This document shows, in pieces, positions 1-48,760 of a DNA stretch of 55,991 nt. The stretch spans positions 62,001-117,991 of the forward strand of contig CAUYUJ010000118.1 in NCBI GenBank assembly GCA_963575745.1. Reading direction: 5' to 3'. The translations under genes were made by a program, and so were the position numbers. The first letter of the stretch is position 1. Each line of letters opens with the position of its first letter. The stretch is from Prorocentrum cordatum. Taxonomy: Eukaryota. The notes below the pieces were generated by a model. The model ran no database searches, was not told where the DNA came from, and saw only the letters and a list, made by a program, of their open reading frames with translations.

Positions 1-248
1 AACGGCCAAATCCCGCCGCAACGCTTTGTGGCAGTAAAAGGTACCCGATCGGGCTGAGATCAAGACGGCGAGCGGGAATAAGATCGAATATGGTGGGAAA
101 AAATACTACAGGTCCAACGAATGGTTCAATTTCGAAAACAAAATTTTCAACCGACCAAAAGTCACCAAAAGGTCCATCGAGATTTTTCTTGCCAACTAGC
201 TCTCCACCGCCCCGGAACTGGCGCCGGCGGTGAACCGTCAACCTGGTC
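1..248 (-). repeat. Fragments of Helitron2/HINE-like non-autonomous elements, ending in the split 3' stem-loop that is the target of retroelement 1
   Basis: Same blocks recur at e.g. 13123-13330 and 26705-26910; CTGGCGCCGGCGGTGAACCGTCAACCTGGTC at 218-248 resumes as CAACCTGGTCACCGCCGG at 6373. Confidence 0.8.
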
Positions 249-328
249 TGCGGTCTGCGGGGCCCGATTCGAGCCCCCTTAGGGGGCAGGGCCAGCGGTA
301 GGATTACCTACAGGCAACCTAAGCACTA

Positions 329-455
329 ACAGCGGAGCTGTGCGATATACAAGTCAGCGTAGCTGTGCATATATGATACAACAGCGTAGCTGCACAGGAA
401 TATACACACATCAAGAAACAGTGGGGCTACGCATGTATCTTACAACAGCGGAGCT
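329..455. repeat. Degenerate minisatellite in the 3' UTR of element 1
   Basis: Core resembling ACAGCG(G/T)AGCT at 329, 354, 381, 418 and 445, separated by related AT-rich spacers. Confidence 0.65.
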
Positions 456-478
456 ATGCAGATATTATACACAAACAG

Positions 479-3400
479 TCACCTGCCAAGTTGTACGTGT
501 ATACACATCTCGGCAATGCCATTGAGAAGAGAATGTGCAGCTGCCAACTCAGCCTGTGTGATCGTGCAATGGCTAGGGATCATGAAACCTCTGCGGCCAA
601 CTCCAGGGTGCCATCCACCCTGCACAAGTCCAGGGGGAAGCTGGTGAGGAGGAAGAGAGGGAACAAGATAAACATCAATAACCCAGCCACACGAGGTGCC
701 ACGCTCACACCGCCCACCGTCAAAAGCTCCTCTAAGTGCACGAACAATATAATGACCCGATCTAATATGATAAAGAGTGTTATGATTCCAACGAACATCA
801 GAAGTTACTTTACCCTCACGTGCAAGATGTGTCTCATAGTCCGCCTCATCGTTGCCCTCCCTATACACCCATTTCCACATATCCCTTCCCACTTCAGCCG
901 TGACAAGATGATGGTCCTCACTCATTCTGTGGAGGCGGTTCTGCATACCCTTGATCGTGCGGCGGTATACTTCATTATGACAGCGATATCTTCCATTAAG
1001 CCAGCGCACAACACACTGGCTATCCCCACGGAGCTCCAAGCCATATCAACCCCCTTCCCCACGCCAAGTGGTTTCATCATCATTTATCGCGGCCAGTCGT
1101 TTCGCCACCCGTTCATTTTCCCGTCGTTGCTGCTCCTCAGACTTCTCCTCCCCCTTCTCCTCCTGCTTGAACTCACCCGTGAAGGGATCCCGAAGAAGGC
1201 AGAACTCGAGAAGATCATCCAAGTCCAGGGCGGCCAGGGTACCCACCAGGAAAGAACGCCAGCCAGTTTCATGCCAGACCATCGTGCGATCCCAATGAAC
1301 CCCGCGCGTGTGCTCGAAGACCTCGAACCAAGGCCTGAGTCCCGTCAAGACTCGATGACGACAGGTTCTAGTAAACCTTCGGCCCCCAGGGAGAGCTCTA
1401 ACATGTACGTCGCGCTGCTCAGTCCACTCCCCCGACGCGTGCATCATCGTCAAGGCGCTCTGCATACTGGCAGTGGGCAATCCTCCTTCCTCCTCCCGTG
1501 CATAGGTACGGCGTACCCGCTTACGAACAGGCTCATGTACATGTTGTGAATCGTGATGCTCATATGCCGTGTTCTCCGATATACGTCTGCGAACTGATCT
1601 ACTTTCCAAGGAAGATGCGCTCTGTGCCTTTCTCCTACACGAACTGTTGAGCTGTCTGGCATTCGGGGTAGGCGAGGGAACCGATAACTCCAAGAAACGC
1701 TGCGAACCACCAAAAATATCAGGATCTCGTGGCTCATGATAAAGAATGCCCTGACTGAGTGCGTCCTCATCCACCCGACTATGTTCCTCATGGATTGTGC
1801 TCACAACATGTTTGGCGAAGAGCCACTGGCGATGAAGGGCGAGCTGGACCATCGAAGGCTTACGGGCCCACTTCAATAAGCGACGGCCACCCTTAATCCT
1901 CCTGCCCCAGTACTCTCCCCAGGACTCCGTGATCTTCTTTTTGAGACGTCTCATGGTGGACAAGAAGTTGCCTTCAGCTGCATGTATCTGTTGGAGACTA
2001 CTCGAATCCAGAGTCGTACCCTCCAAGCCGTACAGAAAGCAACTTCTGACCCTGCTATCATAACGCTGAAACTTACAACGAAGCGGAACCACGGGCGACG
2101 AGTAAAAAGAAATCTCACTCATGAAGACCCTCCGTGCCTTCTCCAGTCGGTGCTTAATGTCGTCATGATCCTGAAATCGTACATCCAATAGCGTGCCGAG
2201 AACCTCCATCCTCTCCACCTGCCTCACTATCATCTCCTCCGAAGGGCCTGCGGCGCTCTGGGAAGCCCCACGAGAACGCTTCCTACCCATCTCAGCAGGC
2301 AGGAGCCCCGGTACAGGCAGGCGGATATCCTGCAATGGACCTTGAACGCCACAAGCCAAGAACTCCATCGAAGATGCTTTCCAGTTGAAACCGAAGCGGT
2401 GGAGGACCCCAGTCAAGTCCTCGAGCATATGAGTCAGTTCTCGCCTGGAAGCTGCTGCCAGCAAAATATTGTCTGCCCACAGCCAGTGGTTGACCAAGAG
2501 GTTGGATGCCTCATCAGTGAGCCTGACGCCGTATCCAGACTGCCTCCAACCTGCCGTCACTGGTGCAAGCATACGAAGTGTCTGGGCAACAAACAGCAAA
2601 GGCGCCTCCAAGGAGCCTGTACGTATGCAAGTATCCCACGAGATGGTCGTAGAACACTGTTGGAAGCTGATCTCTGCCGTATTACAAGCATAACTCTCAA
2701 AGACAGCATACACAAGGGCAGGATGGACATGATGGAATAAAAGCGCCTCTGCTGCACATCTCACCGTGAAATTATCAAACGCCTTTTCAATGTCAGCACT
2801 TGCAAGATAAAGACTCTCCTCCTTCCCCCACACAACGCCGTGTTGAGCAAGACGTTTGAGGGGGGCCGTGACCTCATAACATTTGTGCCCCGCAATAAAG
2901 CCATATAAGTTGCAACCTGGCGGCGCAGCCTGCCGAACGCGGTGCTCTAGAAGTACACATAGACAACTGCTATACCACTTACCAAAATGAGAAAGAAGTG
3001 AGAGGGCCCGCGTTTCTTCAAAATCACGAGCCTTGGGATTCTTAGGCATCAAGCATACCAAGATCTCTCTCCAGGACTTCGGTGAAACATGTTTCTGATC
3101 GTACAGCAAACGGAATAAGGTAAGTATGCGTCGGAGGGCTTCCCATGGCAATGCTTTGAGCACCGATGACGTCACCCCGTCTGCACCTGTTGCCCGTCCT
3201 TCCCTGGGTCTAGACCGTGCCTCCAGCAAGAGACCCATGTTGATCGGGTTGCGGTGGGGCTCTCCAAAGTCTCGCAGGGCCTTACACTGGTTCTTAAGCT
3301 CATCCAAGCACGCGTTGGTGTCCTGTCGGTGGGGATCGCTGGAGTACCTCAGGAGCCCATGCCGCCGAAGGCCCTCAATCCACTTCTCCTGGTCACGCGT

Positions 3401-4747
3401 GAGGACCCCGTCAACATACATGTGCGTAATAACAGGCCTACGACGGACACCATCACGAATACGGTAAAGCTCACATGCACGATCATGACGCTTACGTACT
3501 CGACGCCACCTCCTTGCTGTCCCCTTGTACTCCTCCTGGACTCTCTCGTACTCCTCCTGTCCCACGTTAGCCCCGCCATATCGTGCCACCCTCCACCTCT
3601 TCCTGACCTTAAAGAACTCCTCCTTTATCAGTAAATCCTCCTCCGAATATCTGGGATAGTCTGAAACAGGCTGACCACGGGAACGGGAGATATCCAAAGT
3701 CTCACTGGCACCCTCAAGTATACTCTGTGTCATGACCTCAAAACCTACATCCGTGTGGATCTGATTCACGAGCTCGGGCTGGCAAATCGCTCTCTCCAAG
3801 CCGGCTGTCTGCTGGAGCTCGAACCCTGGCTGAAGCTTCCAGGTCTTGAGCTGAGGCCGACGTCGATACCTCAACTGAGCATGCTGGGCGGGCATATCGG
3901 CACACAAGAGCTTGTGATCGCTAAACGTCCTTTCCGTCGCCTCCGACCGTGGGACCTGGGACGGCACAACCCAAGAACAAGTCACCTCTGGAGTCATCCA
4001 AGAAGCTGGGACCGCAAGATAATCATAGACGTGCTCGTATGTGCTCGAATTGTGTCTCCAAGTAGGCTGACGAGTCCCAAAAGTGTTGGCTAGCTGCAAC
4101 TTGAGGGCCCCCATGGTCTTCAGAAAGGCCCCCGAGTACATCTCCCTCATCCTGTTGGCTCTACTTTCGTCACCTCCACTAGACCTCCCCCTCTTACGTA
4201 TAGGCCCATTCACCGCCTCCCCCGTAACCTCCACCCCATTGATCCTGTGGTGCGGGAAAACCTCCACGTTGGCGTCAGCCGAGATAACAACCTCCTCAAT
4301 GTGAAATCGCTTTTTGGCCGCAGAGACATGTGCAACAAGATCCGATAACACGTCCGTATAGAGCTTGAAACTAGCAAGAAACCCTTCAGGAGAACGGCGT
4401 GCTTCACCCTGTGCACCCCGCTCAGACTCCTTATGAGGGAGATAGACAGAAACGAAGATGAGCTTGCGAAAGATTGCAATGACCCAGCGGCGACCACACA
4501 CAACATCGATAAGCAGATGTCTCCATACACCTCGGCACAAGATGGCAGCCCGTCTCCCCACGTTCTCCCCTTCATCTGCCGAGCGATGTATATCCCAACC
4601 CGCATCTGCAAGATCCAAGTCGTGTAAGAACTGGCTCTCTTGGACCCCGACGATGGAAATCTTTAATTCGGCAATGTGATTCATGCACTCGGAGGTGTAT
4701 CTTCCCAACCTCCGAACGTTCCAACCTCCAACAGAAGCTGGGCACCG
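479..4747 (-). CDS. ORF2 of element 1: APE endonuclease, reverse transcriptase, permuted RNase H; one in-frame TGA at 1046-1048
   Basis: APE motifs GWNV, VQE, VYLP, SADAN, YDY, SDH; RT motifs ATGADGV, ADIEKAFD, IRTGSLEAP, WADN; RNase H motifs GDS, YREGNDEAD, FDGG, TQAEL. Track ORFs 1046..4708 and 479..1039 are in the same frame. Confidence 0.92.
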
Positions 4748-5860
4748 TCACGAGCTGCTATTCACCTGCCTCTCCCAAGTCTTGCAGTCCAGATCTGGAT
4801 CGATGTGCTGGACCCGCTCGGACACGAACTTCCATCCCACGGTATCCGTCCACGTACCTACACACACTTTATCACTCTGACTATCCTTCTGCAGGTATGC
4901 CCAAGCCTTTGCAGGCCCTTCAGGCTCAAAAGTGATGAGAGCAGTGGCAACAGTCTTGAGCTTATGAAAGATCGCAGTCGCCTTGCGAGTCTCCCCCACT
5001 CTACGTCGGTCCTGTGGTGCCGGTTGGACAAACCAACCGAGGCGTCGATCTTTGCACGGTCCAAAACTATTCTGACAACCGACCAGATCAGGGCACGAAT
5101 TGGACCAGGCTGAGGCCCACTCGTTGCGTACTTCCCAGACCGTCTCTTTCGAAGTCCCTGGCATGAAGTATATGCGAAACTTGGTCACACCAAATCGATT
5201 GGAAGCGATATCCCCGTCCGTCCTACCTCTGTCGAAGATCTTAGTAACGTCACTCTCCCGTGCTTGCGATAGTGTGTACAACTTACCTATCATGTTCCTA
5301 ACCGTGGTGACCTGGATCTTGGCCTTATCTCGAGTTTCAACCTTTCGGGGGTCCTCTTGCGCGAAGCCGCTCACCTGGATCCAAGTCGGAACATGTGGTA
5401 CAAAGGGTCTCTGGAAGTCAGCAGTCCGAGAATCACGAGTAGATGCACCTCCCAGAGATGATGAATCTGCCCAGGGATCTCTAGAGTTCATCTGAGACTG
5501 AAGTGCTTTGATCTATTTCGCCTGGGCCTCCTGAGCTGAACGAATCTCCTGCACCGACGAAGCAATAGGGGCAACCTGCTCTGATACCCTCGTTTGAATC
5601 TGCTCTTTGATGTCAACAGAGTTCTGCATAAGCATCCTCTGCATATCTTCACGCATGGCATCGAACTGTGCACGGAGCATAGTGGCCAGATCTCCAGCAT
5701 CACCTCCACCTCCTCCACTACTACCACTTCCATTCCCACTAACTGCCCCACCTCCACCACCCTCGGCATCACCAAGAAGACGTCTATCTTCCAGGAGCTT
5801 CCTCTGTCGCTTCTCTCCGTTGCCCTCAGTTCCCATATCATCATCAGAAGTCGGAACCAT
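4748..5860 (-). CDS. ORF1 of element 1 (coiled coil plus conserved C-terminal domain); internal in-frame TAG at 5513-5515; frame open upstream to the element 5' end
   Basis: Track ORFs 5513..6523 and 4748..5491 share a frame (AK*IKALQSQMNS); RIYFMPGTSKETVWE matches RIYFKPGTSSEILWE (element 2) and RLYFQNGVTSDQLWD (element 4). First ATG at 5860. Confidence 0.8.
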
Positions 5861-6372
5861 CTTCCTCTTAGGATCACACTGCCCACAACTGGAAGTAGAA
5901 TACCGATAAGCTCGACAAGTAGGGCACCTACTAGCCTCCAGATCACGATAGTGTTCGTCCTCGAGTTCTTCAAGAAACTTATCCCAACCCCGTGAAGGTG
6001 AAAGTCGGTACGTGATGAAATCTGCTGCAACAAAAACGGCCAAAGTGTCCTTCTCAACTGCCAGAGCAAAACTGGTAAGTGCCGGGCTCCCAAGAGTATC
6101 ACAAGCAAACAGCAAAGATACAAGTGCAACAGGTAGCGGCCTTGCGCCTCCAGCGGCACGCGTGGGCTCACCCGCTAACACGAGCAGAGTACAAATGCAG
6201 CGACCTATGCGCAGCACGTCCAGGAGGTTGCAGCCGACGAAGTACACGAACTTATGGGCCAGCGCGCACCCACGCGCGCCCACGGCCGCCCAGGGGGCAG
6301 CCTGAGGAGACAGGCTTGAGGAGGCCCCCGACGGGCCAGGCCACCGCTGAGATCCCCGAGGAGGGACAGCGG

Positions 6373-9300
6373 CAACCTGGTCACCGCCGGGAACCTCGTA
6401 GAGCTCCTTGCTTGCACCCATGAGAAAGCTCAGGATCGAAGCGGAGAGCTTCTGGGAGCTTCCTAGAAAAACGTCAAATTGAGATTCTTCGGAGTCAACA
6501 TGACGTCGGTTCCGGGAAGTCAACTAATACAAACTGGCTCTAGAGAGCTGAGCTGCTGAGGAAACAAAGTTTATATGCCAATGCTCGGCGTAAAAATCTG
6601 CTTTCTCAAAATGAATTGTCAAATATCTTTCAAATCTGAGCAAAACCGACCCAAAGTCAACACTTTGTCCTTTCTGGTCGGCCCGACCAATGGGAACCGG
6701 CGGTAAACCGTCAACCAGGTTACCGCCGGCACCTCGTAGACCTCTTTTCTTGGACAGCGCTCCTCGGAACACATGAAGGAAGCTTCTGAAGCGAGAGCCG
6801 AAAAAATCGAAAAATCACGATTTTTCGGTTTTCATCCAAAGTCGTTTCCTCCAAGTGTTTTGATAGTAATACTGCACCTACGGACCTGAGAATTTGACTG
6901 GCAGACGCGGCATAACCCACTCCCCTCCCTCCCTCCCTGCCTGCTCACCGAAGAAGCTCATCAGATGACTCAGAAAAAACGCATTTTTTAGTGTCGATAC
7001 AAAGTCGGTTCCTCCAAGTGTTTTCATAGTAATACTGTCCCTAGGGCCATGAAAGATTAACCAGCAGGTGCGCCATAGCTTACTACAGGGAATGAACATC
7101 TCACTCCTGGAAACGAACTTCAACATTTGCCCCCCCAAAAAAAAAATGCACGGCGATCCTCGGAACACATGAAGAAAGCTTCTCGAGCGAGATACAACAA
7201 AAAAACGACAAATCACGTTTTTCTGTTTTATCCAACATCGGTTCCTCCAAGTGTTTTTGTAGTAATACTGCAGCTACGAACCTGAGAATTTGACTGGCAG
7301 ACGCGGCATAACCCACTACAGGTGCGAAAAATCTGCTCTCTCAAAATGAATTGTCAAATATCTTTCAAATTTTCGCAAAACCCACCCAAAGTTACCACAT
7401 TGTCTCTTTTGGTCGGCTCGGCCAACTAGCTCCACCCCGCGCCGGAATTCCTCTAGCTCATCGATGACGAAGAGCTCTACGAGGTACTAGCTCCACCCCG
7501 CGCCGGAATTCCTCTAGCTCATCGACTGGCGCCGGCGGTGAACCGTCAACCTCGTCACCGCCAGGAACCTCTTAGAGCTCCTTGCACGCATTGAAGTGCT
7601 CAGAATCGAAGCAGACAGCTTCTCGGAGAATTTCTCGAAAAAACGTCAACTTTGCATTTTTCGGTGCCACTGTGAGGTCGGTTCCTCCTAATTTTTCGAT
7701 AGTAAAACTGGCTCTAGAGAGCTGAGCTGCTCTGGGAATGAGTTTTATATGCCAATGCTCGACGTAAAAATCTGCATTCTCAAAATGAATTGCGGAAGAG
7801 CTCTCAAGCGCATCTGCAGCTCGAGTAAGTGGAAAAATCACCATCAGCTCGAAAAAAAAGGGTCGCATACGAATAGCTTTGCGGACCTAGCTCGGGTAGC
7901 AGACTGTGTTCAGAGCTCTAGATGCTCCAGCCTCCAGCCGAACGCCCCTGATGATGCTCGATGGGTTTCTGTGCGCTACAGCCCTGCAACTCTGCTACAG
8001 CTTCAGTTAAGTACAGAAGACCGACAGCGCCTGCAAAGAGAACTTGAAGAATACAAATAGTTTTGCGGACCTAGCTCGGGTAGCAGACCGAGTTCAGACC
8101 GCTCGATGCAACAGACGGACGCGCCTAATCATACATAATCCTCTCATGTGCGTACCAGCTCTGTAGCTATTCTGAATCGTGAGTTAAGGACAGAAAACCG
8201 ACAGCACTCGTCAAAATGACTCCAAGAATACGAATAGGTTTGCGGTCTCGAGATAAGTACAGAAAACCGTCAACACGTGTCAAGGACTCGAAACGGTCGA
8301 CGGTTCCCTCAAATCTTTTGATAGTAATATTGCAGCTACAAACCTGGCAATTTCACAGCCGCGCGCGCAATAACCCACTACAGGCGGGAAAAACACCTGT
8401 TCTTAAAACGAACTTTCAAATTTTACACACACATAGAAAAACCGACCCCAGGTTATCACATTGTCTCTTGGGGTCGGATCGGTCAACTAGCCCCACCCTG
8501 CGCCGAATTCCTCTTAGCTCATCTTACCGAAGAGCTCTACGAGGTATATCTTTCAAATCTTTGCGAAATCAACCCAAAGTTATCACATTGTCCGTCCGGG
8601 CCGGGTCGACCACTGGGAGCCGGCGGTAAACCGTCAACCAGGTTACCGCCGGGAGCCTCGTAGAGCTTTCCTCGCACAGCGCTGCTCGTAACACGCGGGG
8701 AATCTTCCTCACACGCGAGCTGAAGACTCGAAAAATACTTCAAGTGTTTCGATAGTAATACTGCAGCTACGAACCTGAGAATTTCACTGGCAGACGCGGC
8801 ATAACCCACTACAGGTGCGAAAAATACCGGTTCTCGAAACGAATGTTCAAATCTCTCAGAAAGTTTGCCCAACCGACCCAAAGTTCACACATTGTCCGCC
8901 CGGGCCGGGTGGATCAACTGGAAGCCGACGGTAAACCGTCAACCAGGTTACCGCCGGGGCCCTCGTAGAGCTCTTTTCTCGCACGGCGCTCCTCGGTACA
9001 GACAAAGGGAGCGTCTGGAGCAAGACCCGAAAAACTCGAAAAATCACGTCTTTATGTTTTTATCCAAAGATGGTTCCGCCAAGTGTTTTGATAATAATAC
9101 TGCGCCTACGGACCTGAGAATTTGACTGGCAGACGCGGCATAACCCACTACAAGTGCGAAAAATCTGGTTTCTCAGAATGAATTGTCAAATATCTTTCAA
9201 ATATTCGCAAAACCGACCCAAAGTTACCTCTGGGCGCCGGCGGTAAACCGTCAACCTTTCTTACCGCCGGGAGACTCGTAGAGCTTCCTTACCATATATT

Positions 9301-11503
9301 ATGTCCACAGAATTAGCAGAGAACAAGTAGTTGATCTCAGGCTTCTAGATATACTTCACTGTTGCCCAGAGCTCTAGATGCAACAGATGCACGCCCCTGA
9401 TGATGTGAATCGATTGATGTGCACACGAGCTCTGTAGCTCTCCTACATTTCGAGTTACGTACAGAAAACCGACAGCATCTGTCAAGGTGACTCGAATTAT
9501 ACGAATAGTTTCGCGGACGTAGCTCGAGTAGCAGACCAAATTCAGGCCTCTAGATGCAACAAATCAACGCGCCTCATGCTTTGGGATGGGTTTTTGTGAG
9601 CATCAGCTCTGTAGCTGTCCTACAGCTCGAGTTAACTCCAGAAAACCAACACCACCTCTCAGGATGACTCGACTAATACGAATAGGTTCGCGGGCTATCT
9701 CGGGTAGCAGACCGAGTTCGGACCTATAGATGCAACAGATGAACGCGCCTGATGATTTTCAATGAGTTCCTGTAAGTATCAGCCCTGTAGCTGTCCTACA
9801 GCGTACAGGAACCCGACAGCATCTGTCAAGATAACTCGAATAATACGAATAGCGTTGCGGACCTAGCTCGGGTAGCAGACCGAGTTCAGACCTCTGCATG
9901 CAACAGATCGACGCGTCTGATGATTCGGGATGGGTTTCTGTAAGCTTCAGCTCTGTAGCTGTCCTACAGCTCGAGTTAAGTACAGAAAACCCACATCACC
10001 TGTCAAGATGACTCGAATAATACGTATAACTTCGCGGACCTAGCTCGAGTAGCAGACCGAGTTCAGGCCTCTAGATGCGACAAATGAACGTCTATGATCA
10101 TTTTAAATGGTTTCCTGTAAAGTATCACCTCTATAGCTGTCCTGCAACTCAAGTTAAGTACAAAAAACCGACAACGCGTATCAAGATGACTAAAAACTGG
10201 GCGCCGGCGGTAAGCCGTCAACCTTTCTTACAGCCGGGGGACTCGTAGAGCTTCCTGACCATATATTATGTCCAAAGAATTCGTAGAGAACGAATAGTTT
10301 TTCAGCCCGAGCGCTGATAGGAGACTGATCTGAGGCGTCTAGTGATATCCCATTGCTGTGCTCAACACTTCTATAGCTCATCTGCAGCGTGTAAAAAATA
10401 CCATTAGGGAGAAAATAGCAGAGTACGAATCCGTGTTTGGCGTCTGCGCTCACAACAGACCCAAAATAAGCGTCTAGATGCTTTGCGCCTCACGATGTCC
10501 TTCTGATTTTTCGGCCGAAGAGCTCCCGAGCTGCTCTGCAGCTCGAGCTCAGCGAAGAAATTCACCATCATTTGGAAAAAAATGTCGGTCGAATACGAAT
10601 ATTTTTGTGAAGCTAGCTCGGGTAGCAGTCCGAGTTCAGACCTCGCGATGCAACAGACGAACGCTCCCAATGCTTCTGCATCAGTTTCTGTGCGCACCAG
10701 CTCTGTAGCTCTCCTACAGCCTGAATTCAATACAGAAAATGGACAACATCTGTCAAGATGACACGAAGAATACAAATAGTTTTGCGGACCTAGCCCGAGT
10801 AGCAGACCCAGTTCAGACTTCTAGATGCAACAGACAAACGGGCCTGATGATTCCGAATCAGTTTCTGTGCGTATGAGCTCTGTAGCTCTCCTACAGCCCG
10901 AGTTACGTGCGAAAACGGACAGCACCTCTCAAAATGACTCGAAAGATACCAATAGTGTCGCGGACCTAGCTCGAATAGCAGACCGAGTTCAGACCTCTGG
11001 ATGCAACAGACGAACGCGCGTGATTATTGTGCATCGGTTTCTGTGCGCATCAGCTCTGTAGCTCCCCTAGAGCTCGAGTTAAGTACAGAAAAACGACAGT
11101 CCTGTCGAGATAACCCGAGCGATACGAATAGACCTAGCTCGAGTAGCAGACCGATTTCATACCTCTGCATGCCACAGGCGAACGCGCCTGATGTCGCCAA
11201 ATCGGTTTCTGCAATTACCGGCCATGTAGCACCCCTACAGCCCCAGTTAAGTACAGAAAACCGACAGCACCTCTCAAGATGACTCGAATAGTACGAACAG
11301 TTTCGCGGACCTAGCTCGAGCAGCAGACCGAGTTCAGACCTCTGGATGCAACAGACGAACGCGCCTGATGATCTTGAATCGGTTTCTGTAACCATCAGCT
11401 CTGTAGCCCCTCTACAGCTCGAGTTAAGCTTTTTTATAATTTATATTAATATGTATGTATTAATATATAATAATAATGATAAAATTTATCGTAAACCCCC
11501 CCC

Positions 11504-11541
<38 letters not shown>

Positions 11542-14500
11542 GACAACGCATGTCAAGATGACCCCAAACGGCCGATCCCGACCGTGTGCTTTTTGGCATT
11601 AATATCTACCCGATCGAGCTAAGATTAAGACGGCAATCGGGAATAACTTCGAATATCATGGTAAGAATACTAGATCTCCAACGAATGGTTCAATTTCGAA
11701 AACAAAATTTTCAACCGACCAAAAGTCACCAAAAGGTCCATCGAGATTTTTCTTGCCAACTAGCTCTCCGGCGCCCCGGAATTACTCTTAAGCTTCCAGC
11801 ATAAGCTCTGTAGCTGTCCTACAGCTCGAGTTAAGTACAGAAAACCGACGACGCGTGTCAAGATGACCCGAAACGGCCGACCCCGCCCGTGTGCTTTTTG
11901 GCAGTAATATCTACCCGATCGACCTGAGATCAAGACGGCGAGCGGGAATAAGATCGAATATCACGGGAAAAAATACTAGAGCTCTAACGAATGGTTGAAT
12001 TTCGAAAACAAAATTCTCAACCGACCAAAAGTCACCAAAAGGTCCGTCGAGATTTTTCTTGCCAACTAGCTCTCCAGCGCGCCGGAATTACTCTTAAGCT
12101 TCCAGCAACTAGCAAAGGAAAGCTCTACGAGTTACAGCCGATCCTGCCCGCGTGCTTTTTGGCAGTAAAAGATATCCGATCGAGCTGAGATCAAGATGGC
12201 GAGCAGGAATAAGGCCAAATATCACGGGGGAAATACTAGAGCGCTAACGAATGGTTGAATTTCAAGAACAAAATTTTCAACCGACCAAAATTCACCAAAA
12301 GGGTCGTCGAGATTTTTCTCACCAACTAGCTCTCCAACGCCCCGGAACTGGGCGCCGGCGGTAAACCGTCAACCTTTCTTACCGCCGGGGGACTCGTAGA
12401 GCTTCCTGACCATATATAATGTGGAAAAATACAGAGAACGAATAATTTTTCAGCCCGAGATTTCAGACCTCTCGATGCAACAGCCGAACGCCCCTGATGC
12501 TTCTGGATCGTTTTCTGTGCGCACGAGCTCTGTAGCTCTCCTACAGCCCGAGTTACGTGCGAAAATCGGCAGGACCTCTCAAGATCACTCGGACAATACG
12601 AATAGTTTCGCGGACCTAGCTCGAGTATCAGACCGAGTTCAGACCTCTGAACGCGACAGACGGACGCGCCTGATGTCTCCAAATCGATTCCTGTGATTAC
12701 CAGCCCTGCAGCCCCCCTACCGCCCGAGTTAAGTGCAGAAAACCGACAGCACCTCTCGAGATGACTCGAACAATACGAATAGTTTCGCGGACCTAGCTCG
12801 GGCAGCAGACCGAGTTCCGAGCTCTGGATTCGACAGGCGGACGCGCCTGATGTCTCCAAATCGATTCCTGTGATTACCAGCCCTGTAGCCCTCCTACAGC
12901 CCGAGTTAAGTACAGAAAACTGACAGCACCTCTCAAGATGACTCGAACAATACGAATAGTTTCGCGAACCTAGCTCGGGCAGCAGACCGAGTTCAGAGCT
13001 CTCGATTCAACAAACAAGCGCGCCTGATGATTCTGAATCGGCTTGTGTACGCATCAGCTCTGTAGCTGTCCTACAGCTCGAGTTCAATACAAAAAACCGA
13101 CAGCGCCTGTCGAGATGACTCGAAACGGCCGATCCCGCCTGCCTGCTTTTTGGCAGTAGAAGGTACCCGATCGAGCTGAGATCATGACGGCGAGCGGGAA
13201 GAAGATCGAAAATCACGGGAAAAATACTAGAGCTCTAACGAGTGGTTGAATTTCGAGAAAAAAAAAATCGACCGACCAAAAATCACCAAAAGGTCCGTCG
13301 AGATTTTTCTTGCCAACTAGCTCTCCAGCGCGCCGGAATTACTCTTAAGCTTCAGCAACTAGCTAAGGGAAGCTCTACGAGATATTACTCTTAAGCTTCC
13401 AGCAACTAGCTAAGGGAAGCTCTACGAGTTACTTGGTAGCGTCCACTTGGTAGCGTCCAAAACCCGGAGAGCAAAGAGACACTCGGGGACTGGGAGCCGG
13501 CGGTAAACCGTCAACCAGAGCTCTTCTCTCGCACGGCGCTGCTCGTAACACGTGGGAAGAGTCTCACACGCGAGCTCAAAACTCGAAGAAATACGTTTTC
13601 TTAGTTTTTATCCAAAGACGGTTGCTTCAAGTGTTTTGATAGTAATACTGCAGCTACGGATTTGCAAATTTATTGGCGGGCGCGGCATAACCCACTACAG
13701 GTGCGAAAAATACCAGTTCTCAAAACGAATGTTAAAATCTCTCAGAAAAATTGTCCAACCGACCCAAAGTTCACACATTGTCCGTCCGGGCCGGGTGGGT
13801 CAACTAGCTGCACCCCGCGCCGGAATTCCTCTAGCTCATCGATGCCGAAGAGCTCCACGAGGTACTCTTTAGCTTCCAGCAACTAGCTATGGAAGGCTCT
13901 ACGAGTTATAGGGATCCGGCGGTAAACCGTCAACCAGGTAACCGCCCGAAGCCTCGTAGAGCTCTGTTCTTGCGCGGCGCTGCTCTGAGCGCACGGAAAA
14001 AGCTTTCTCAAGCGTGAAGAAAAAAGCTCGAAACAAATATTTGTTCATTTCGTATCCTCCTTTTGTGGACCTAGCTCGAGTGCAAGACCGAGTTCAGACC
14101 TCTCGATGCGAGAAAAGAACGCGCCCGGTGATACTCGATCGGTTTATATGCGTACCAGCTCTGTGGCTCTTCTAAATCTTCAGTTAAGGGAAGCCGACAG
14201 CACCTGTCAAGATCACTCGTATGATGAATAGTTTCGCGGATCTAGCTCGAGTAGCAGACCGAGTTCAGACCTCTCGATGGAACAGACGAACGTGCCTGAT
14301 GATTCTGAAGCGGTATCTATAAGCATCAGCTCTGTAGCTGTCCTAAATCTCGAGTCAAGTACAGAAAACCGTCAACGCGTGTCAAGATGACTCGAAACGG
14401 CCGACGATTCCCTCAGATCTTTCGATTGTACTTTTGCAGCTACGGACCTGAGAATTGAAGTGAGAGACTCTGCATAACCCACTACAGGTGGAAAAAATAC

Positions 14501-15928
14501 CGGTTCTCAAAAGGAATTTTCAAATTTTGCAAAAAGATTGAAAAACCGACCCCAAGTTACCACATTGTCTCTTATCTTAAGGTCGCGTCGGCTCCCGGCG
14601 AGAGCTTCCTTGCCATATATTATGTCCAAAGAATTGGCAGAGAACAAATAGTTTCTCAGCCTCCGCTGATAGCTGACTCGAATACAAAACTGAATTCAGA
14701 GCTCAAATGATGTTCAATCGATTGATCAGCATCTGTCCAGATATCTCGAATAATACGAATAGGTTCGTGGACCTAGCTCGAGTGGCAGACTGAGTTCAGA
14801 CCTCTAGATGCAAGGGATCAACGCACCTGATGATTTGGGATCGGTTTCTGTTAATGGGAGCCGGCGGTAAACCGTCAACCAGGTTACCGCCGGGAGCCTC
14901 GTAGAGCTCTTGTCTGCACGACGCTGTTTGGAACACATGGGGGAAGCTTTCTTACGCGTGAGCTGCAAAGCCTTAAAAATTATGTTTTTCAGCTTTCACC
15001 GAAAGTCGGTTGATTCAAGTGGGGAACCGACAGCACCTCTCAGATCACTCGTATAATACAAATAGTTTCGCGGATCTAGCTCGAGTGGCAGACCGAGTTC
15101 AGAGCTCTCGATGGAACAGACAAACGCGCCTCATCATTCTGAATCGATTTCTGTAAGTAGCAGCTCTGTACCTCTTCCAAATCTTGAGAAGTACAGAAAA
15201 CCGTCAACGCGTGTCAAGATGCTCGAAACGGCCGACGGTTCCCTCAAGTCTTTTCATAGTAATATTGCAGCTACGGACCTGAGAATTTCACTGGCAGACG
15301 CGCACGGCGCGGGCGGTAAACCGTCAACCTTTCACCGCCTGGGGACTCGTAGAGCTTCCTGACCATCTATTGTGTCTGTAAAAAGAGCAGAACAAATAGT
15401 TTTCAAGCTCGAGCTGATAGCAGGGTGATTTCAGGCGTCTAGTGATATCCCATGCTGGAAGGAAGTAGCAGAGTACGAATCCGATTTTGGCGTCTGCGTT
15501 CACAACAGACTCACACCAAGCGTCTAGATGCTTCACGCCTCACGATTTCCTTATGAGCTTTTGTCCGCTCGAGTGAAGAAATTCACCATCATTTGGAAAA
15601 GGAAAAAATGATAGCAGACCACGTTCAGACCTCTCGATGCAACAGACGCTCGAATAATACGAATAACTTCGCAGACCTAGCTCGAGTAGCAGACCCAGTT
15701 CAGACCTCTGGATGCAGCAGACGAACGCGCCTGATCAGTCTGCATCAGTTTCTGTGCGTATCTGCTCTGTAGCTACCCTAGAGCTCATAACTCGAACAAT
15801 ACAATAATGTCGCGGAGGTGGCGGGTAGCAGACCGAGTTCAGACCTCTAGATGGAACGGACGAACGTGCCTGATTATTCTGAGAAGATTCCTATTAACTT
15901 GGTAGCGTCCATCTGGCGTCCACTTGGT
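6373..15928 (-). repeat. Nested mosaic of Helitron2/HINE-like non-autonomous elements
   Basis: Terminal hairpin motif near 6697, 7533, 8620, 8925, 9237, 10205, 12355, 13497, 13916, 14861 and 15311; opposite-end AGCTCTACGAG near 7473, 8533, 12121, 13371 and 13421; internal ~177-bp repeats. Confidence 0.8.
11429..11540 (+). other. AT-rich insert ending in C9-A36
   Basis: Replaces the usual TACAGAAAAC between GAGTTAAG and CGACAACGC of the 177-bp repeat. Confidence 0.6.
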
Positions 15929-15981
15929 TGGGTGTTGGGGTCGGCTACACAGGGCGCGTGCGCCCTAGCCGTGCAGAGTCC

Positions 15982-18900
15982 CTAGGGCCCCTCACGCCCT
16001 CTCAACCTCTTTGGGGTTGGAGGCCCGAGGATCTCAGAGATAATCTGCCGAACACCTTGGAGCAGGCGTTCACAAGCTGTGAGCTCGCTATCAGTAACAG
16101 TGGCCCCCAGAGGGAGTAAAGAAGCCTCCTGGAAAACTCGTCGCCAGTGGTTGCCCCCAAATGAGACCTCCACATAGCAACCTAGAGCAGAGCCTTCAAC
16201 ACTCACGCCACCGTCCCATCCTCCACGGATACGTATGATACAATGTCTCTGTTGTCGTAAATATCTGAAGTCAATCCATCTTCCCGTCCTTCCCCTCCTC
16301 GCCTCCCAAGTCAACTCATCCGCAACACAATTGAACTCTCTGTAGATATGCTTCCACGGACCCGCCCCTACAGTGGCACACCTGATGTCGTAATCCTCCG
16401 CCAGTTGATTCATATCGTTTTGTAGGCCGTGCACTCTCCTGCGGTACGAACGATCACGGCATTCCCAGATCCCTCGGGCCCAGTTCACCACACACATACT
16501 ATCACCAGTCATTTCAACCAGCAATGAGCTCTCCGAGCCCTCCTGCCAGACAGCTTCGTTGTTATATCCGTGGGCAATCCTACGAGCGAGCCTGTCGGAG
16601 TCCTCAGGGGAGTCCCACGTATCCACAGGGCAAGGAGCACAGGGCGGTTTCCTGAAGATGGGCTCCCATCGAGGCTGTATTTTTTCATGCACGCAACTAC
16701 ATTCCACCAGTCCGTCGCATTCCACTTGATGCTGAACCAGCGTAAATTACCACTCGCCGCCAACATAAGACAATGCCAACTGTCAGTGCTTGCATGCGCT
16801 CTCCCTCCCACTCTCCTCGTACCTCCCCTCCTCCTGGCTCCCGTGAACATGGATACAAGTGTGTCCCTCCGTAGCGACCATTCCCCCGCACAGTGTAACA
16901 TGGCCTGCAGCGTCTGACGCCAGGCTCGTGCCCCACGGACGTCCGTGGAGGCGAAGGCCCGATCATGAAACTGGGCCAGCTCCAGCGCAAACTCGAAATT
17001 GGCTCGGACCACCTTCTCTAGGAGACTGCAGTGGCCAGCCTGCAAGAACAGCTCGTATGACTTCGGTGTGGTCCTGTCCCTGAACTCCTCCCACGTCTCC
17101 TCCTCCCTCTTGTGTAATCCTCGCATACCGTTGAGACACCTCCCCTCCCAGACCTTAATCCTCTCCAGCAGTCGTAGATTGCACGGCCAGCCTATACATC
17201 CGTGGTACACCACAGACTGCACACGAGCGGCATACCTGCGAAACTTCTCTTTGAGTGAGACCGATCTGGAGCGATAAAACTTGATGTCAGCAAAATAGGC
17301 CTTCCTCCCTTTCTCCAGTCGATGATACAAGCCGTGATATCCCTTGATTTCCGAGCTGAACTTCACTCCTAGTACCTCCACCTCCTCCTTCCTCGGCATT
17401 ACGACAGTCGAGCGCAAGTGCTCTGGGAGATCCTCATCTCCAGAAATCGCACAGGTGGCTGGCGAGAGCGTGCAGAGCAGCGGCGGATCTCCATCTGTGT
17501 ACGTCTGGCCAAAAAGTACATACGCCAAAGAGTCCTCCTTCCAGTCCATCCCTGCCCGTCTGAGTGTTACCGTCATCATACCGATCATCTGTTGTAGCTG
17601 GAGCTGCGATGCAGCACAGAGCGTAACATTGTCCGCCCACAAGAAATGGTGTACAAGAGCACCGTCCGTCCCATCCCCTTCCAGTCGGACACCGTATCCT
17701 AAGGTGTCCCAAGTCTGAATCACAGATCCCCAGATGGCCTCCAAGACAATATTGAAAAGTATGGGTCCCTCCTTACCTCCCGTTCGGACCGATTTGTTGT
17801 ATCTCACCTCATCGCCGCACACGTTCTGAAACTCAAAGGTAGCAATGTTATCCAGCATGGGCTCCACAATGGCTCTGATGAGGCACACAGGGTACTTAAG
17901 GTACAGCATGGCCTTGATGATAGTGTGCAGTGTGACATTATCGAAAGCTTTGTGTATGTCCAAGACTCCCACGTGCATAGACTCCGCCTTCCCCCACACA
18001 TTTGCATGTCTAGTAAGATGTGATAGTGGTGCCGTGACGTTAGTAACCTTCTGATCCTTCTCAAATCCGTATGTGCACAACCGTCGGTTCACAGGAAATG
18101 CATCAATAAACTGCAACACACATGCCATGTACCATTTACTCATCACACTGATCAGGCAAATCCCTCTGGTGTTGGAGAGTCGTGTAGCATCCCGCATCTT
18201 CGGCACAAGTTGGATACTGAGCTGCCTCCACGTCTCAGGGCTGGAGGCTCCCTGCTCGAAAATCCTCTGGAAAGCACGCCGCACAAACAAGAGGCTCCTC
18301 CACGGCAACTCACGAATGACCTCAGCAACGACTCCATCGCTGCCGGGTGCCGTGCCAGGCTTCAAAGACGCACGAGCCTGCATGAGCATGCCCATCGTGA
18401 TGACTCTTCCCTCCACCCCACGGTCGTTGTGTCTGAGTTCCTGAAAGGCCTCCAAAGTCCGTTTTTCCTCCTCCGAGTTCGTGTAAGACGCCGTCGCATA
18501 CCTAGTGATCTCCGTACTCCACCTAGTCCTGTCCATTGTCAGCACACCCTCACACTCCAGCTCCTTGAGGATACACCGTGAGGTCTTACTGGATCCCCTG
18601 TGGTCCTGCAGGAGTTGGTTCCTCCTATGCTGTCTCCTAAGGGTCTTCCTCCTACGCAGCAGTTGTTTACGAGTATTCCCAAGGGCCCCACGCCTGATGG
18701 CAGACTCCACCTCTATGAGCTCCCTGGGCCTCTGAATAGGTTTGCAGTTGGGGCGCCCCTTAGTGTGGTCCACAAGCTTTGCCGTCTCCAAGAGTACCCG
18801 TCCGACCTGCTGCAGGTCCGTCCCTACCGTGTCCGTTGCAAGTCCCTCAATCGACACATCCGCAAGCACACGAAACATGTTCCTCGCCGTGTCATCCGTC

Positions 18901-19763
18901 GGCTGCCAGCCAACCATGGACACAGGGCGGGGTGGCAAAGCTGGGCGCCTGATCTCCGTCGTCTTGAGATTTACCCAGACCAGAGCGTGATCACTATAGG
19001 CACTGGCTTTTGCACGTATACCTGGCGTAGCTTTGATGGGTTCCACAAACTGGACCTGGCATCTCATTTCCTGGTGAGCTCTTGCCTCATCCGCGCACCA
19101 ACGTGTAGGGATGAGTATATAGTCAAGCACACGCTGCACATGTGTGGAACAGTACGGTATATGTGTGATACGTCGGTCTCCATATGTGTTCGCCGCACAG
19201 ATCCCCCAAGTACTCATGAACCTCATAAGCATGTCCCTCCTCTCTGCATGGTAGTTCGCCTCCTCCCTCCTCCCGTCCACCTGCATAAGACCTCCTCCCG
19301 TCATTCCCAGCATATCTGGTTCAAGTTCCGTCTGAGCATCCATCCCCACCCATGGTATGACTCCAGCCTGTGTAGTTTGAAACATAGTAACACTGCACTT
19401 AGTAAGTACATCTAAATATTCCCCCAAGTGGTCCACGTCACGCATCACACATGGTAGATACACTGGTGTAACTAGAGCACCCCTGAATTCAACACACGCA
19501 AATCGTACCCCACTCCGTCGAGCAATCACATGTGGTGCCCAATCCCTGCACCATGCAACCGCCGCCTTGGAGCAGGAGCTATAGTGAATCTCCCATCCGC
19601 ATCTGTTAAAAGTATTTGCACTGGTATGCTCACACTCTTGCAGACACACCGTTTGAATTGACCTGGCTTCACATGCAGCGACCAGGTTGGGCACTTGACC
19701 GTCGGATATTTTCTGCACATTCCAGGTTGCGACCACGGTCTCAGTCGCAGCCCTACCGCCCCG
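15982..19763 (-). CDS. ORF2 of element 2: APE-RT-permuted RNase H; one frameshift near 16680
   Basis: TWNV, LQE, VYLP, LDY, SDH; APGSDGV, LDIHKAFD, VRTGGKEGP, WADN; GDS, HIYREFNCVAD, WDGG, TDSEL. The frame most plausibly changes at an A6 run (16680-16685). Confidence 0.92.
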
Positions 19764-21134
19764 TCAATGATTCGGGCACCGTAGTGTCTGAAGAAACTGC
19801 ACCTGATTAATATCGGGCTCAACGTGTGTCAAATTATCACCATAGAGGTTCCATCCTTTTGTCGGTCCCCATTCTGCAATCAAAGTCTTTTGTGTAGTAT
19901 CAGCATTCGGCATATACCACATGTATGTCATTGGCGGACCCGTCTCACCTCGAAGAATAGCCGTCGCATTTTTCTTGATATCAGAAAATAGTGCTTGAAA
20001 CCGTCCTACCGCCCGAACATGTTCTATCTTCCATGGCTGGCATTCAACTTGAAATCGCACGTTGGGAGGCAATGAAGTGAGACCCCGTCTGTAGTCATTC
20101 TCCCACACACGTTTCGCTTCCCATAGGATCTCAGAGGATGTACCTGGCTTGAAATAGATCCTACCCCTCGTGTACGGCCAATATCTACCAGTATTCTCCT
20201 GAACCGCCCGATCCAAGTCCAGTGCCGCCCTCTGTGTAGCATCAATTTGTTTAGAGTCAATAAGACCATTCATCGCCGTCGTCAGTGCCTCCTGTGAAAG
20301 AGCCTCCCGCTGACGTATCTCACGGTTCCTCCATCCCTCCCTTGAAACCCATCCCTTGAACTCAACATAACGTGGATTCCAAGCAGGATCGTGCCTGTCC
20401 GTACCCGCCTTCGTGGATCCACTTGCTACAGACAGCCCGTCCCCCTGCTTGAGCTTCTGAACTTCATTGGTGAGGTCCTGGATCGCCGATTCTGTTTTTG
20501 ATACCCTGGAGTCCAGAGATGTTTTGAGACCGTCCATTTCCGTACGAATAGAGTTCCTGAACGATTGCATGTCTGCCGTCATAGTCTGTTGTCCCGTCAT
20601 GATGGAACGAAACATCTGTTCAATGTCCAGACCAGCTTCCTGGGCAACCTCATTCGCCCCCAACGTTTGTCCCGCACCTCCTCCTTCTCCTTTCCCTCCT
20701 CCTTTGACATTACGAGCACGGACAGCTCTAGCAAACGCCCCACCCCCATCATCAATTGTCATGTCCTGGCCCACCGCATGCAAGCCTGGAGCACCTGGAA
20801 CTGAAGAACCTGCTGGCATCGCTGGTGCAACACCTGAAACTGAAGAACCTGCTGCCGCCATCTTCCTTTTGTGGCTGCGCAAGATATTGAAATCGTAACC
20901 TTCACCCTGCACGAAGTGGTTACGCAAGATATGGAAATCGTAACCTTCACCCTGCACAAACGGTACGGTTGGTGTGAGCGATGGCACACAAATAACAGCT
21001 CCCCTGTCACCTCGAGGTGTCCCGACCTGTCTAGCAAGATAGTCCCAGTCCGCGTGACTGAAGTCGGATCCCCAGCACTCCGTCGTTCCAAGAGAGAGGA
21101 AAAGATACAATTGCAGCAGTAGCAATAGCCGCAA
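19764..21134 (-). CDS. ORF1 of element 2 (uninterrupted; first ATG at 20861)
   Basis: 456-aa ORF; heptad-like segment followed by VEFKGW, PWKIEH, GETGPP and GW motifs shared with ORF1 of element 4. Confidence 0.88.
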   Translation of the reverse strand: MRLLLLLQLYLFLSLGTTECWGSDFSHADWDYLARQVGTPRGDRGAVICVPSLTPTVPFVQGEGYDFHILRNHFVQGEGYDFNILRSHKRKMAAAGSSVSGVAPAMPAGSSVPGAPGLHAVGQDMTIDDGGGAFARAVRARNVKGGGKGEGGGAGQTLGANEVAQEAGLDIEQMFRSIMTGQQTMTADMQSFRNSIRTEMDGLKTSLDSRVSKTESAIQDLTNEVQKLKQGDGLSVASGSTKAGTDRHDPAWNPRYVEFKGWVSREGWRNREIRQREALSQEALTTAMNGLIDSKQIDATQRAALDLDRAVQENTGRYWPYTRGRIYFKPGTSSEILWEAKRVWENDYRRGLTSLPPNVRFQVECQPWKIEHVRAVGRFQALFSDIKKNATAILRGETGPPMTYMWYMPNADTTQKTLIAEWGPTKGWNLYGDNLTHVEPDINQVQFLQTLRCPNH

Positions 21135-21910
21135 TCAAGTGCAGGCTTGGCCTAGCACACACAATAACAATAACAAGTGCAGCGGCCTAGCTGACCTCGA
21201 TCTCGCTGAACCCGAAGATGACGAAGAAGGCAGCGAGGGCTGCCGAGCCGCCCGCGGCGACGCACCCCCTCCCACACGCTAGACGCCTGTGGGATCCAGG
21301 CGTCCACTTGGTAGCGTCCAAAACCCGGAGAGCAAAGAAAGCCTTACGAACCGGAAAGCCCTCCTGGAGGGTTATGGGGGGCTTCCCTGTGGCCCTTCTG
21401 AAGCACTGCCAGGAACGCTTCCACGCGTGCCTGCACGCGCGCAGGCACGCGCGGAAGCTTGCCGGAAGCTCTCCCGGACCAGCTGCTGGCTCGAACGAAC
21501 CCCTCCAAGGATTCTGGAGCGGCGGAGATGGGCCGACCAAAAGAGACAATGTGGTAACTTTGGGTGGGTATTGCTAAATTTTGAAAGATATTTGACAATT
21601 CATTTGGAGAGCCGGTATTTTTCTCCCGTGTAGGTCTGCCAGTTAAATTCTCAGGTCCGTAGCTGCAATATTACTATCAAAAGACTTGCAGGACTTGCGT
21701 TCCGAGTCATCTTGACACGCATTCACGGCTATCTGTACTTAACTCGAGATTTCGAAGCTACAGAGCTGATAATTACACGAATCGATTCAGAATCATCAGG
21801 CGCGTTCGTCTGTTGTATCCAGAGGCTTCAACTCGGTCTGCTACTCGAGCTAGGTCCGTCGAACTATTTGTGTTCTTCGAGTGATCTTGACCAGTGCTGT
21901 CGGTTTTCTG

Positions 21911-22329
21911 TACCTCGTAGAGCTCTTCGGCATCGATGAGCTAGAGGAATTCCGGCGCGGGGTGGAGCTAGTTGGCCGACCCGACCAAAAGAGACAATGT
22001 GGTGACTTTGGGTCGGTTTTGCCAAGAGTTTAAAGATATTTGACAATTCGTTTTGAGAAAGCAGATTTTTCGCACCTGTAAACGACTATCTTCGCACCTG
22101 TAAACGACTGTCAGGGCCTCTGCGTCTTAATATGAGCTCTGCAGGCGCAAATTTACTATCAAAACACTTGGAGGAACCAACTTCATCTCGACATGAAAAA
22201 GATGAATGTTCAATTTTTCGAAAAATGCCCCCAGAAGCTCTCTCTTTCGACTCTCAGCACTTTGCGCGTGGGAGGAGCTCTACGAGGTTCCCGGCGGTGA
22301 CCAGGTTGACGGTTCACCGCCGGCGCCAG
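21911..22329 (+). mobile_element. Complete 419-bp HINE-like element (short subfamily), type example
   Basis: Starts TA; subTIR ACCTCGTAGAGCTC 21912-21925 pairs with GAGCTCTACGAGGT 22275-22288; stem-loop 22291-22323; ends CCAG; inserted at host TTTTCTG^TACTCAA with no duplication. Confidence 0.8.
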
Positions 22330-25300: not shown

Positions 25301-25369
25301 TTTTCGGACCTAGCTCGGCTAGCAGACCGAGTTCAGACCCCTGCAGCGCTGCTGAAGCCTGCCAGAAAC

Positions 25370-25411
25370 GCTTCCATGCGTGCCTGCACGCGTGCAGGCA
25401 CGCGTGGAAGC
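25370..25411. repeat. 42-bp near-perfect palindrome
   Basis: GCTTCCATGCGTGCCTGCACG|CGTGCAGGCACGCGTGGAAGC with one mismatch; second copy at 21417-21458; collapsed copy near 38669-38697. Confidence 0.85.
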
Positions 25412-25774
25412 TTGCCGGAAGCTCTCCCGGACACGTTGCCGGGCCGGGCGAGTCGCTGCGGGGAACTGGCGCCGGCGGTGAACCGTCAACCTGGTCACCG
25501 CCGGGACCCTCGTAGAGCTCCGTTCACGCGTGAGAGAGCTCAGAGTCGAAAGAGAAAGCTTCTGGAAGCATTTCTGCAAAAATTGAACATTGATTTGTTT
25601 CATGTCGAGATGAAGTTGGTTCCTCCAAGTGTTTTGATAGTAAATGTGCGCCTACAGAGCTCATATTAAGACGGAGAGGCCCTCATATTCGTTTACAGGT
25701 GCGAAAAATCTGCTTTCTCAAAATAAATGGTCAAATATCTTTCAAATATTCGCAAAACCACCCAAAAGTTACCA

Positions 25775-31776: not shown

Positions 31777-31808
31777 TGGGCGCCGGCGGTAAACCGTCAA
31801 CCTTTGTT

Positions 31809-48686: not shown

Positions 48687-48760
48687 TTTTTGCGGTTTGC
48701 GGTCCGCCACTAGAATCCGAATCCGAATCGGCGGAGCAGTGCAACTGAGCCCCCACCATC

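Follow-up and report, generated by a model that had tools for sequence, protein, structure and literature searches.

The stretch of DNA analysed here (the window) comprises 55,991 nt of Prorocentrum cordatum contig CAUYUJ010000118.1 (positions 62,001-117,991, assembly GCA_963575745.1) and contains four copies of long interspersed nuclear elements (LINEs) whose reverse transcriptase (RT) reads Trp-Ala-Asp-Asn (WADN) in motif C of the active site, at the usual position of YxDD. A family profile, which also detects L1-type RTs, identified exactly four RT loci, each on the minus strand, in the 56-kb window and no RT besides the four WADN copies. Along the protein encoded by the second open reading frame (ORF2) the domains follow each other in the order endonuclease, RT and RNase H-like, with ORF1 upstream; the endonuclease is of the apurinic/apyrimidinic endonuclease (APE) type. 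The copies and their parts are as follows.

244-6360, minus strand: LINE copy 1; the 3' end adjoins a hairpin motif at 220-243, and the 5' end is approximate
4751-5512 and 5516-6523, minus strand: copy 1, pieces of ORF1
1049-4747, minus strand: copy 1, ORF2 (APE and RT), open, 1233 aa
482-1045, minus strand: copy 1, RNase H-like domain, behind an in-frame TGA at 1046-1048
15912-21305, minus strand: LINE copy 2, flanked by 15-nt direct repeats at 15897-15911 and 21306-21320
19767-21134, minus strand: copy 2, ORF1, followed by an in-frame TGA at 19764-19766
16512-19763, minus strand: copy 2, ORF2 (APE and RT), open, 1084 aa
15985-16746, minus strand: copy 2, RNase H-like domain, in another frame
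31803-33815, minus strand: LINE copy 3, 5'-truncated inside the RT just upstream of motif C, frameshifted
32011-33606, minus strand: copy 3, C-terminal ORF with an uninterrupted RNase H-like domain
48687-54486, minus strand: LINE copy 4, full length, split over several frames
52942-53856, minus strand: copy 4, ORF1
51820-52938, minus strand: copy 4, APE
50234-52030, minus strand: copy 4, RT
48990-50387, minus strand: copy 4, C-terminus
48675-48686 and 54487-54498: flanks of copy 4, 12-nt direct repeat AAGAAAGGTTGA

Our analysis identifies the four loci as APE-type LINE retrotransposons with an RNase H-like tail, based on their RVT_1 matches, the order of the profile matches and an L1-like fold. 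Pfam RVT_1 was matched by copy 2 (E=1.7e-13) and copy 1 (E=1.2e-07), and a profile of 35 sequences (A1) matched, in order, ExoIII/APE1/L1-type endonucleases, human LINE-1 ORF2p together with R2, and RNase H chains. The endonuclease is seen in positions 3-205 of the family profile (against ExoIII, APE1 and L1 EN chains, E=1e-9 to 1e-5), and the N-terminal part of the AlphaFold2 (AF2) model of copy 2 has the fold of APE1, ExoIII and the TRAS1/R1Bm endonucleases; in Pfam searches with single copies, the endonuclease stayed short of E=0.01. The best Foldseek matches of the copy 2 model were L1 ORF2p (E=4e-28), then R2 and then group II intron RTs. The elements also bear the marks of target-primed reverse transcription: copy 3 begins inside the RT, and perfect flanking repeats of 15 nt and 12 nt bound copies 2 and 4, respectively. 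No long terminal direct repeats were found around copy 2.

An earlier note on this DNA, made from the sequence alone, had described the elements as retaining intact duplications and near-intact ORFs. Target duplications exist for two of the four copies (15 nt at copy 2 and 12 nt at copy 4), none having been found at copy 3 and the 5' end of copy 1 not being fixed. The open ORF2 frames of copies 1 and 2 agree roughly with that description, but stops, frameshifts and truncation are spread across the four copies, and copy 1 has in-frame stops both inside ORF1 and ahead of the RNase H part. The RT segments of copies 1, 2 and 4 are 32-34% identical, and the short piece from copy 3 is 38-47% identical to the others; at ~33% protein identity the copies are therefore not recent duplicates of one another.

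The TGGGCNGAYAAY pattern has four matches in the window, on the minus strand only. The active-site motifs lie at the following positions.

2468-2479, minus strand: WADN codons, RT motif C, copy 1 (ORF2 residues 757-760)
17628-17639, minus strand: WADN codons, RT motif C, copy 2 (ORF2 residues 709-712)
33719-33730, minus strand: WADN codons, copy 3 (the 5'-truncated copy)
50621-50632, minus strand: WADN codons, copy 4
2600-2623, minus strand: RT motif B, copy 1, RTGSLEAP
17763-17786, minus strand: RT motif B, copy 2, RTGGKEGP, aligned with RQGCPLSP of L1 ORF2p; E665 is the Glu flagged by the earlier note
50765-50788, minus strand: RT motif B, copy 4, RTGGVEGP
17940-17960, minus strand: RT motif A, copy 2, DIHKAFD; D602 is invariant in the 35-sequence family alignment

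The codons at the four motif C sites are TGGGCAGACAAT, TGGGCGGACAAT, TGGGCGGACAAC and TGGGCAGATAAT, with GCA/GCG, GAC/GAT and AAT/AAC variation, and the surrounding translations are NHWLWADN (copy 1), HHFLWADN (copy 2), NHFVWADN (copy 3) and HSFWADN (copy 4). The earlier observation of WADN at these four places with synonymous codon variation is thus borne out by pattern search, codons and translations, and so is that of RTGxxE(A/G)P upstream in three copies (1, 2 and 4); copy 3 is without motif B because it starts only ~30 residues upstream of WADN. Tyr/Phe is absent from the first position of motif C, and the second Asp is absent too, with Trp and Asn, respectively, in 4/4 window copies.

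The damage seen in all four copies would favour reading WADN as a result of chance or of pseudogene decay, or as copies of one recent mutant. But the four matches compare with a chance expectation of 0.10 and were reached in 0/100 shuffles, the copies are too divergent (~33% identity) for recent duplicates, and the motif is common to dozens of unrelated database proteins. This explanation is refuted by these observations, and we assign it practically no probability. Being common to copies ~33% identical, WADN has survived deep divergence.

In the match of the A1 profile to human LINE-1 ORF2p (E=5.8e-44), 'thllWADNiyll' is aligned on 'kLSLFADDMIVY'. The catalytic metal-binding triad of LINE-1 ORF2p is given as D600, D702 and D703 in passages of two structure papers from 2023 (PMC10830420, PMC10830416), so that Asn replaces the D703 equivalent and Trp replaces Phe. 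The premise of the earlier note, that the second Asp is the more dispensable one, finds no backing in these passages, which list D703 in the triad. The AF2 model of copy 2 ORF2, which has a mean predicted local distance difference test (pLDDT) score of 82.4 with the RT blocks mostly >90, places W709-A710-D711-N712 at the turn of a beta-hairpin between strands 706-709 and 712-717, the usual YxDD position. The remaining core residues are well kept in the family. D602 (motif A), D711 (the first motif C Asp) and the L798-G799 pair are invariant in the A1 alignment, and W709, A710 and K742 are conserved in at least 90%. The motif A Asp is found in 81/85 xxDN sequences and in 30/30 xxDD sequences.

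An exhaustive HMMER search with copy 2 ORF2 retrieved 3489 proteins at E<=1e-3, and the motif C counts that follow rest on the best 150 of these 3489. In all, 153 proteins were pooled, one of them being the window's copy 4, and 110 span motif C (109 database relatives plus copy 4). Their fourth motif C position is Asn in 81, Asp in 27 and another residue in 2.

Asn class (81): WADN 63, WSDN 5, FADN 4, YADN 3, WVDN 3, WFDN 1, RADN 1, WANN 1
Asp class (27): WADD 19, FADD 6, YADD 2
Other class (2): WADS, LAGS

A tree was built without the four motif columns (IQ-TREE quick search, LG+G4) for 76 rows (67 distinct) with at least 330/445 RT-core columns filled and an ungapped motif, shorter matches being left out. 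Mostly Trp is found at the first position of motif C in a 73-row clade with support 100. Inside it lies a 54-row clade, with a Shimodaira-Hasegawa-like approximate likelihood ratio test (SH-aLRT) support of 95, in which 54/54 rows have Asp-Asn, and beside this clade there is a 16-row group of 10 WADD, 2 FADD and 4 WADN. Across the 76 rows, 3 changes between Asn and Asp suffice. An 11-row sub-clade (support 98) unites copies 1, 2 and 4, and branch lengths in the Asn clade go up to about one change per site. WADN is also encoded, with GCC/GCT and AAC/AAT codons, at two independent loci of a public assembly, L002 and L003. The earlier note had named, as an outcome that would undo its proposal, a motif already characteristic of a described clade. 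In substance WADN does characterize a clade, but that clade was not found described in print.

Among the matches listed, many relatives have an unbroken protein of 1100-1450 aa encoded on a 4-6-kb contig, and some occur as several near-identical full-length members. The word-indexed protein searches returned only 3 and 7 relatives, none of them named. An NCBI or UniRef record is lacking for all 20 protein clusters looked up, which makes the clade easy to miss in annotation, and the matching RT clusters in the ESM Atlas are without recorded taxa. The hosts of the clade seem to be mostly uncultured eukaryotes of aquatic habitats.

The acidic residue of motif B was presented in the earlier note as an invariant, possibly compensatory Glu. 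Counting this position in 116 distinct sequences gave the following distribution of an acidic residue (E/D).

W-xxDN: 61/77
W-xxDD: 15/19
Non-Trp xxDD (canonical F/YADD): 2/11

The residue is thus variable among W-xxDN sequences, and it is equally common in W-xxDN and W-xxDD, which indicates that it is a trait of the Trp-bearing clade as a whole, independent of Asn. The proposal of a compensatory Glu is therefore not supported. A paired test for a link between Asn and this residue had 2-3 independent pairs to work with and hence no power. The acidic residue may, speculatively, have come first and made the later change from Asp to Asn tolerable. The Thr that replaces the motif B Gln (RTG instead of RQG) is a sub-clade trait, present in 22/77 W-xxDN sequences.

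We looked for signs of recent mobility and selection. A locus search with a single protein gave 3 loci, all too distant for a ratio of non-synonymous to synonymous substitution rates (dN/dS). Copy 2 was also compared with contigs of four public runs from four studies (marine metagenome, freshwater metagenome, metagenome and coded organism). The contigs are mostly 95-100% identical to copy 2, and they have their differences from the window copy in common. Past the 3' end of the element (15922/15927) the runs continue into differing sequences, as expected for copies at different sites. Among the 40 best-supported of 184 differences, 39 are coding, and 20 of the 39, including 15/25 in ORF2, are synonymous, whereas the observed mutation spectrum predicts 28.6% (binomial P=0.002 and P=0.001, respectively). 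The excess suggests that, for part of its recent history, the copy-2 family was under purifying selection at the protein level. At 16679, contigs of 3/4 runs have an additional base; in the window's copy 2, the reading frame changes in this stretch, between the RT and the RNase H part.

These comparisons support the view that WADN is selected and is not a product of decay. The earlier note had proposed a selected, functional active-site variant. Selection is what the four ~33%-identical copies, the 81/110 and 54/54 counts, the conserved core and the synonymous excess argue for; with regard to function, we infer from the same patterns that the WADN RT probably has an active two-aspartate site. 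Our favoured reading, held with reasonable confidence, is that WADN is the motif C of a clade of LINEs in which Asn is the inherited norm, and that the enzyme would still polymerize and the elements copy themselves. Metal binding would rest with the two aspartates that are left; the side chain of Asn would place one metal or act as a weak ligand of it, or help place the primer end, as in polymerases with a motif C of ADN (birnaviruses) or GDN (mononegaviruses), both described in passages of PMC9752661. The elements would then copy themselves by target-primed reverse transcription, with altered speed or metal preference as a possible consequence.

Several observations weigh against this reading. 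The passages of the LINE-1 structure papers (PMC10830420, PMC10830416) put D703 in the metal-binding triad, and ADN lowers the activity of the birnavirus replicase according to passages of PMC9752661, so that a slower or metal-shifted WADN enzyme is possible. All four window copies are damaged, and none of the 24 listed runs holding the sequence is an RNA record. A further locus (L001, 1112 nt, best segment 57% identical to copy 2) reads WAGN; it is decayed, with stops and frameshifts. The test for synonymous excess rests on the 40 best-supported of 184 differences, and the tree is a quick search with SH-aLRT as its sole support measure, rooted on three canonical FADD rows that we chose. If the WADN RTs were catalytically dead and were copied in trans by WADD or F/YADD relatives, the replacement of a LINE-1 triad residue, the occurrence of WADD and FADD relatives in the same superfamily and the broken state of every window copy would fit. 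But in dead passengers, an open 1100-1450-aa frame, the Lys of motif D, the Asp of motif A and the first Asp of motif C would not have persisted throughout a deep clade; furthermore, Asn holders outnumber Asp holders (81 vs 27), the family profile finds no other RT in the 56-kb window, and recent ORF2 changes show a synonymous excess. We regard a dead enzyme as distinctly unlikely.

The RNase H-like domain occupies 482-1045, 15985-16545, 32011-32670 and 49002-49301 in the window (all minus strand) and 7086-7785 in L002. Its motifs come in the order GDS..VV.W, RE.N..AD, (F/W)DGG with three long strands, and a helix with T.T..E, and this order is the same in the family consensus and in L002. The first half corresponds to the C-terminal half of RNase H (3u3g residues 63-134, E=1.4e-4; VIA Z=4.0, 28% identity), and the A1 profile matches 4e19 in two stretches. 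In the AF2 model of the domain (pLDDT 88.7), three long strands and a helix carry the DGG and (T/S)E motifs. The second half alone (3-sequence profile) had no PDB match, and Foldseek with the domain model gave no clear match, only TM ~0.25 to unrelated lipoproteins. The C-terminal RNase H-like domain is thus apparently circularly permuted, with its halves swapped, as judged from the motif order and the model. No relevant paper was found in the literature on RNase H permutation in retrotransposons.

This apparent rearrangement is one of the features that would suit a different role for the enzyme, in which Asn marks a polymerase with a special task, for example in its metal use or fidelity, in slow or short cDNA synthesis, or in synthesis that is protein-primed or non-templated, instead of ordinary LINE copying. 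Two positions of the active-site loop are altered together (Trp for Tyr/Phe and Asn for Asp). Motif B has acquired an acidic residue, and a sub-clade also has Thr in place of the dNTP-contacting Gln of this motif. However, the elements leave ordinary LINE footprints, that is, 5' truncation, short target duplications and full-length copies, and their domain order and fold match those of L1 ORF2p. A specialized task is thus an unlikely explanation of the motif, and self-copying LINEs with an inherited Asn remain our preferred reading.

In all four elements that retain the junction, ORF1 and ORF2 lie in the same frame with one stop between them (TGA-C in three and TAG-A in one). These stops are at 4748-4750, 19764-19766 and 52939-52941 in the window and at 3947-3949 in L002. 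The elements sharing this layout are only ~33% identical, and the layout suggests that ORF2 could be made by read-through or re-initiation. The ORF1 proteins have no Pfam family and no PDB sequence match. Likeness between the ORF1 copies (19767-21134, 4751-6523 and 52942-53856, minus strand) is limited to the C-terminal ~200-280 residues, with 25-30% identity.

The DNA around the LINEs is rich in repeats. A GC-rich hairpin (CCGGCGGTAA, a short loop GGTTGACGG, then TTTACCGCCGG) occurs at 43 sites in the window, 41 of them on the minus strand, and always at joints between repeat units (e.g., 220-243, 31779-31802 and 48657-48680). The 3' ends of LINE copies 1, 3 and 4 all adjoin GGTTGACGG inside the hairpin loop, the left arm of the hairpin is also found at the 5' junction of copies 3 and 4, and the 3' tails of copies 1, 3 and 4 have a common (GA)CCGCA(A/G)A repeat. 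Insertion of these LINEs into the hairpin loop may be site-specific. Directly upstream of copy 2, a stretch of 33 nt (21306-21338, which includes its 15-nt duplication) is present in many run contigs with unrelated sequence on both sides; it has up to 50 loose ends in one run, and parts of it recur in copy 2's own 3' end. This stretch is a dispersed short repeat, and it is possibly a preferred target of the copy-2 sub-family.

The DNA between the LINEs (7791-15881, 21701-40218, 45720-48292 and 54589-55182) is a mosaic in which a 175-178-bp repeat forms short arrays (2-5 units, 74-83% alike) within larger units, such as one with a 1121-bp period at 29655-31775 (97.5% identity). A separate, homogeneous satellite at 40473-45313 has a 351-bp unit in 13.8 copies with 93% matches. 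The dinoflagellate spliced-leader motif gave 0 matches in the window at <=3 mismatches, and the numbers of Rfam families and of tRNA scan hits in the window were also 0.

A broader picture would be that of a deep, almost unannotated LINE clade that abounds in aquatic metagenomes and combines a two-aspartate WADN RT with a permuted RNase H, ORF1-stop-ORF2 read-through and insertion into hairpin loops. We propose this whole combination tentatively, and judge its prospects as slightly less than even. The adjacent aspartates of YxDD are treated as a hallmark of active RTs and are routinely used both in deciding whether an RT gene is 'intact' or 'dead' and in designing RT-null controls. If the broader picture is true, the 'invariant' YxDD rule for active RTs has a large natural exception, and a large, old, self-propagating Asn clade would show that the rule can mislabel real enzymes. 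Such a clade would also offer a natural system for the role of the third carboxylate in metal choice, speed or fidelity, and it could supply RT scaffolds with unusual properties.

A search of the full-text literature, which covered new LINE clades, protists and dinoflagellates, with Repbase outside its scope, found no retrotransposon RT described with WADN or a DN active site. A paper about bacterial RTs was retrieved, whose matching passages contain no DN variant. Unnamed 'LINE environmental clades' were reported from Tara Oceans data by Lescot et al. in 2016 (PMC5029228), in passages where motifs are not discussed. The WADN elements may well be catalogued in Repbase without comment on the motif.

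Among known systems, human LINE-1 ORF2p (PDB 8uw3, 8c8j, 9k6i) gave both the best profile match (E=5.8e-44) and the best fold match (E=4e-28), and it has the same N-terminal APE endonuclease and an RT with the same order of motifs. An upstream ORF1, 5' truncation and target duplications are also common to LINE-1 and the WADN elements. The two differ in that FADD becomes WADN (D703 to Asn) and RQGCPLSP becomes R(Q/T)GGxE(S/T/G)P, and in that the WADN elements have a C-terminal RNase H-like domain, an ORF1 without detectable family, and ORF1 and ORF2 in one frame with a single stop between them. Identity between WADN ORF2 and L1 is only ~15-17%.

The RNase H-bearing APE LINEs (I/Tad1/LOA/ingi) have ORF1, then APE, RT and RNase H, as do the WADN elements. 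These clades are known for Y/FADD and an RNase H of the usual order, against WADN and apparently swapped RNase H halves here; the reference comparison of LINE RTs covered L1 and R2 from PDB. The WADD relatives (e.g., P0045, P0061 and P0118) are alike in architecture, in the motif C Trp and in the acidic residue of motif B (15/19), and they occupy the neighbouring branch of the tree, but they keep the second Asp. A natural Asn in place of the last motif C Asp is shared with the palm-domain RNA polymerases of birnaviruses and mononegaviruses, as described in passages of PMC9752661. These are viral RNA-dependent RNA polymerases unrelated in descent to LINE RTs, and the likeness is thus an analogy of mechanism only.

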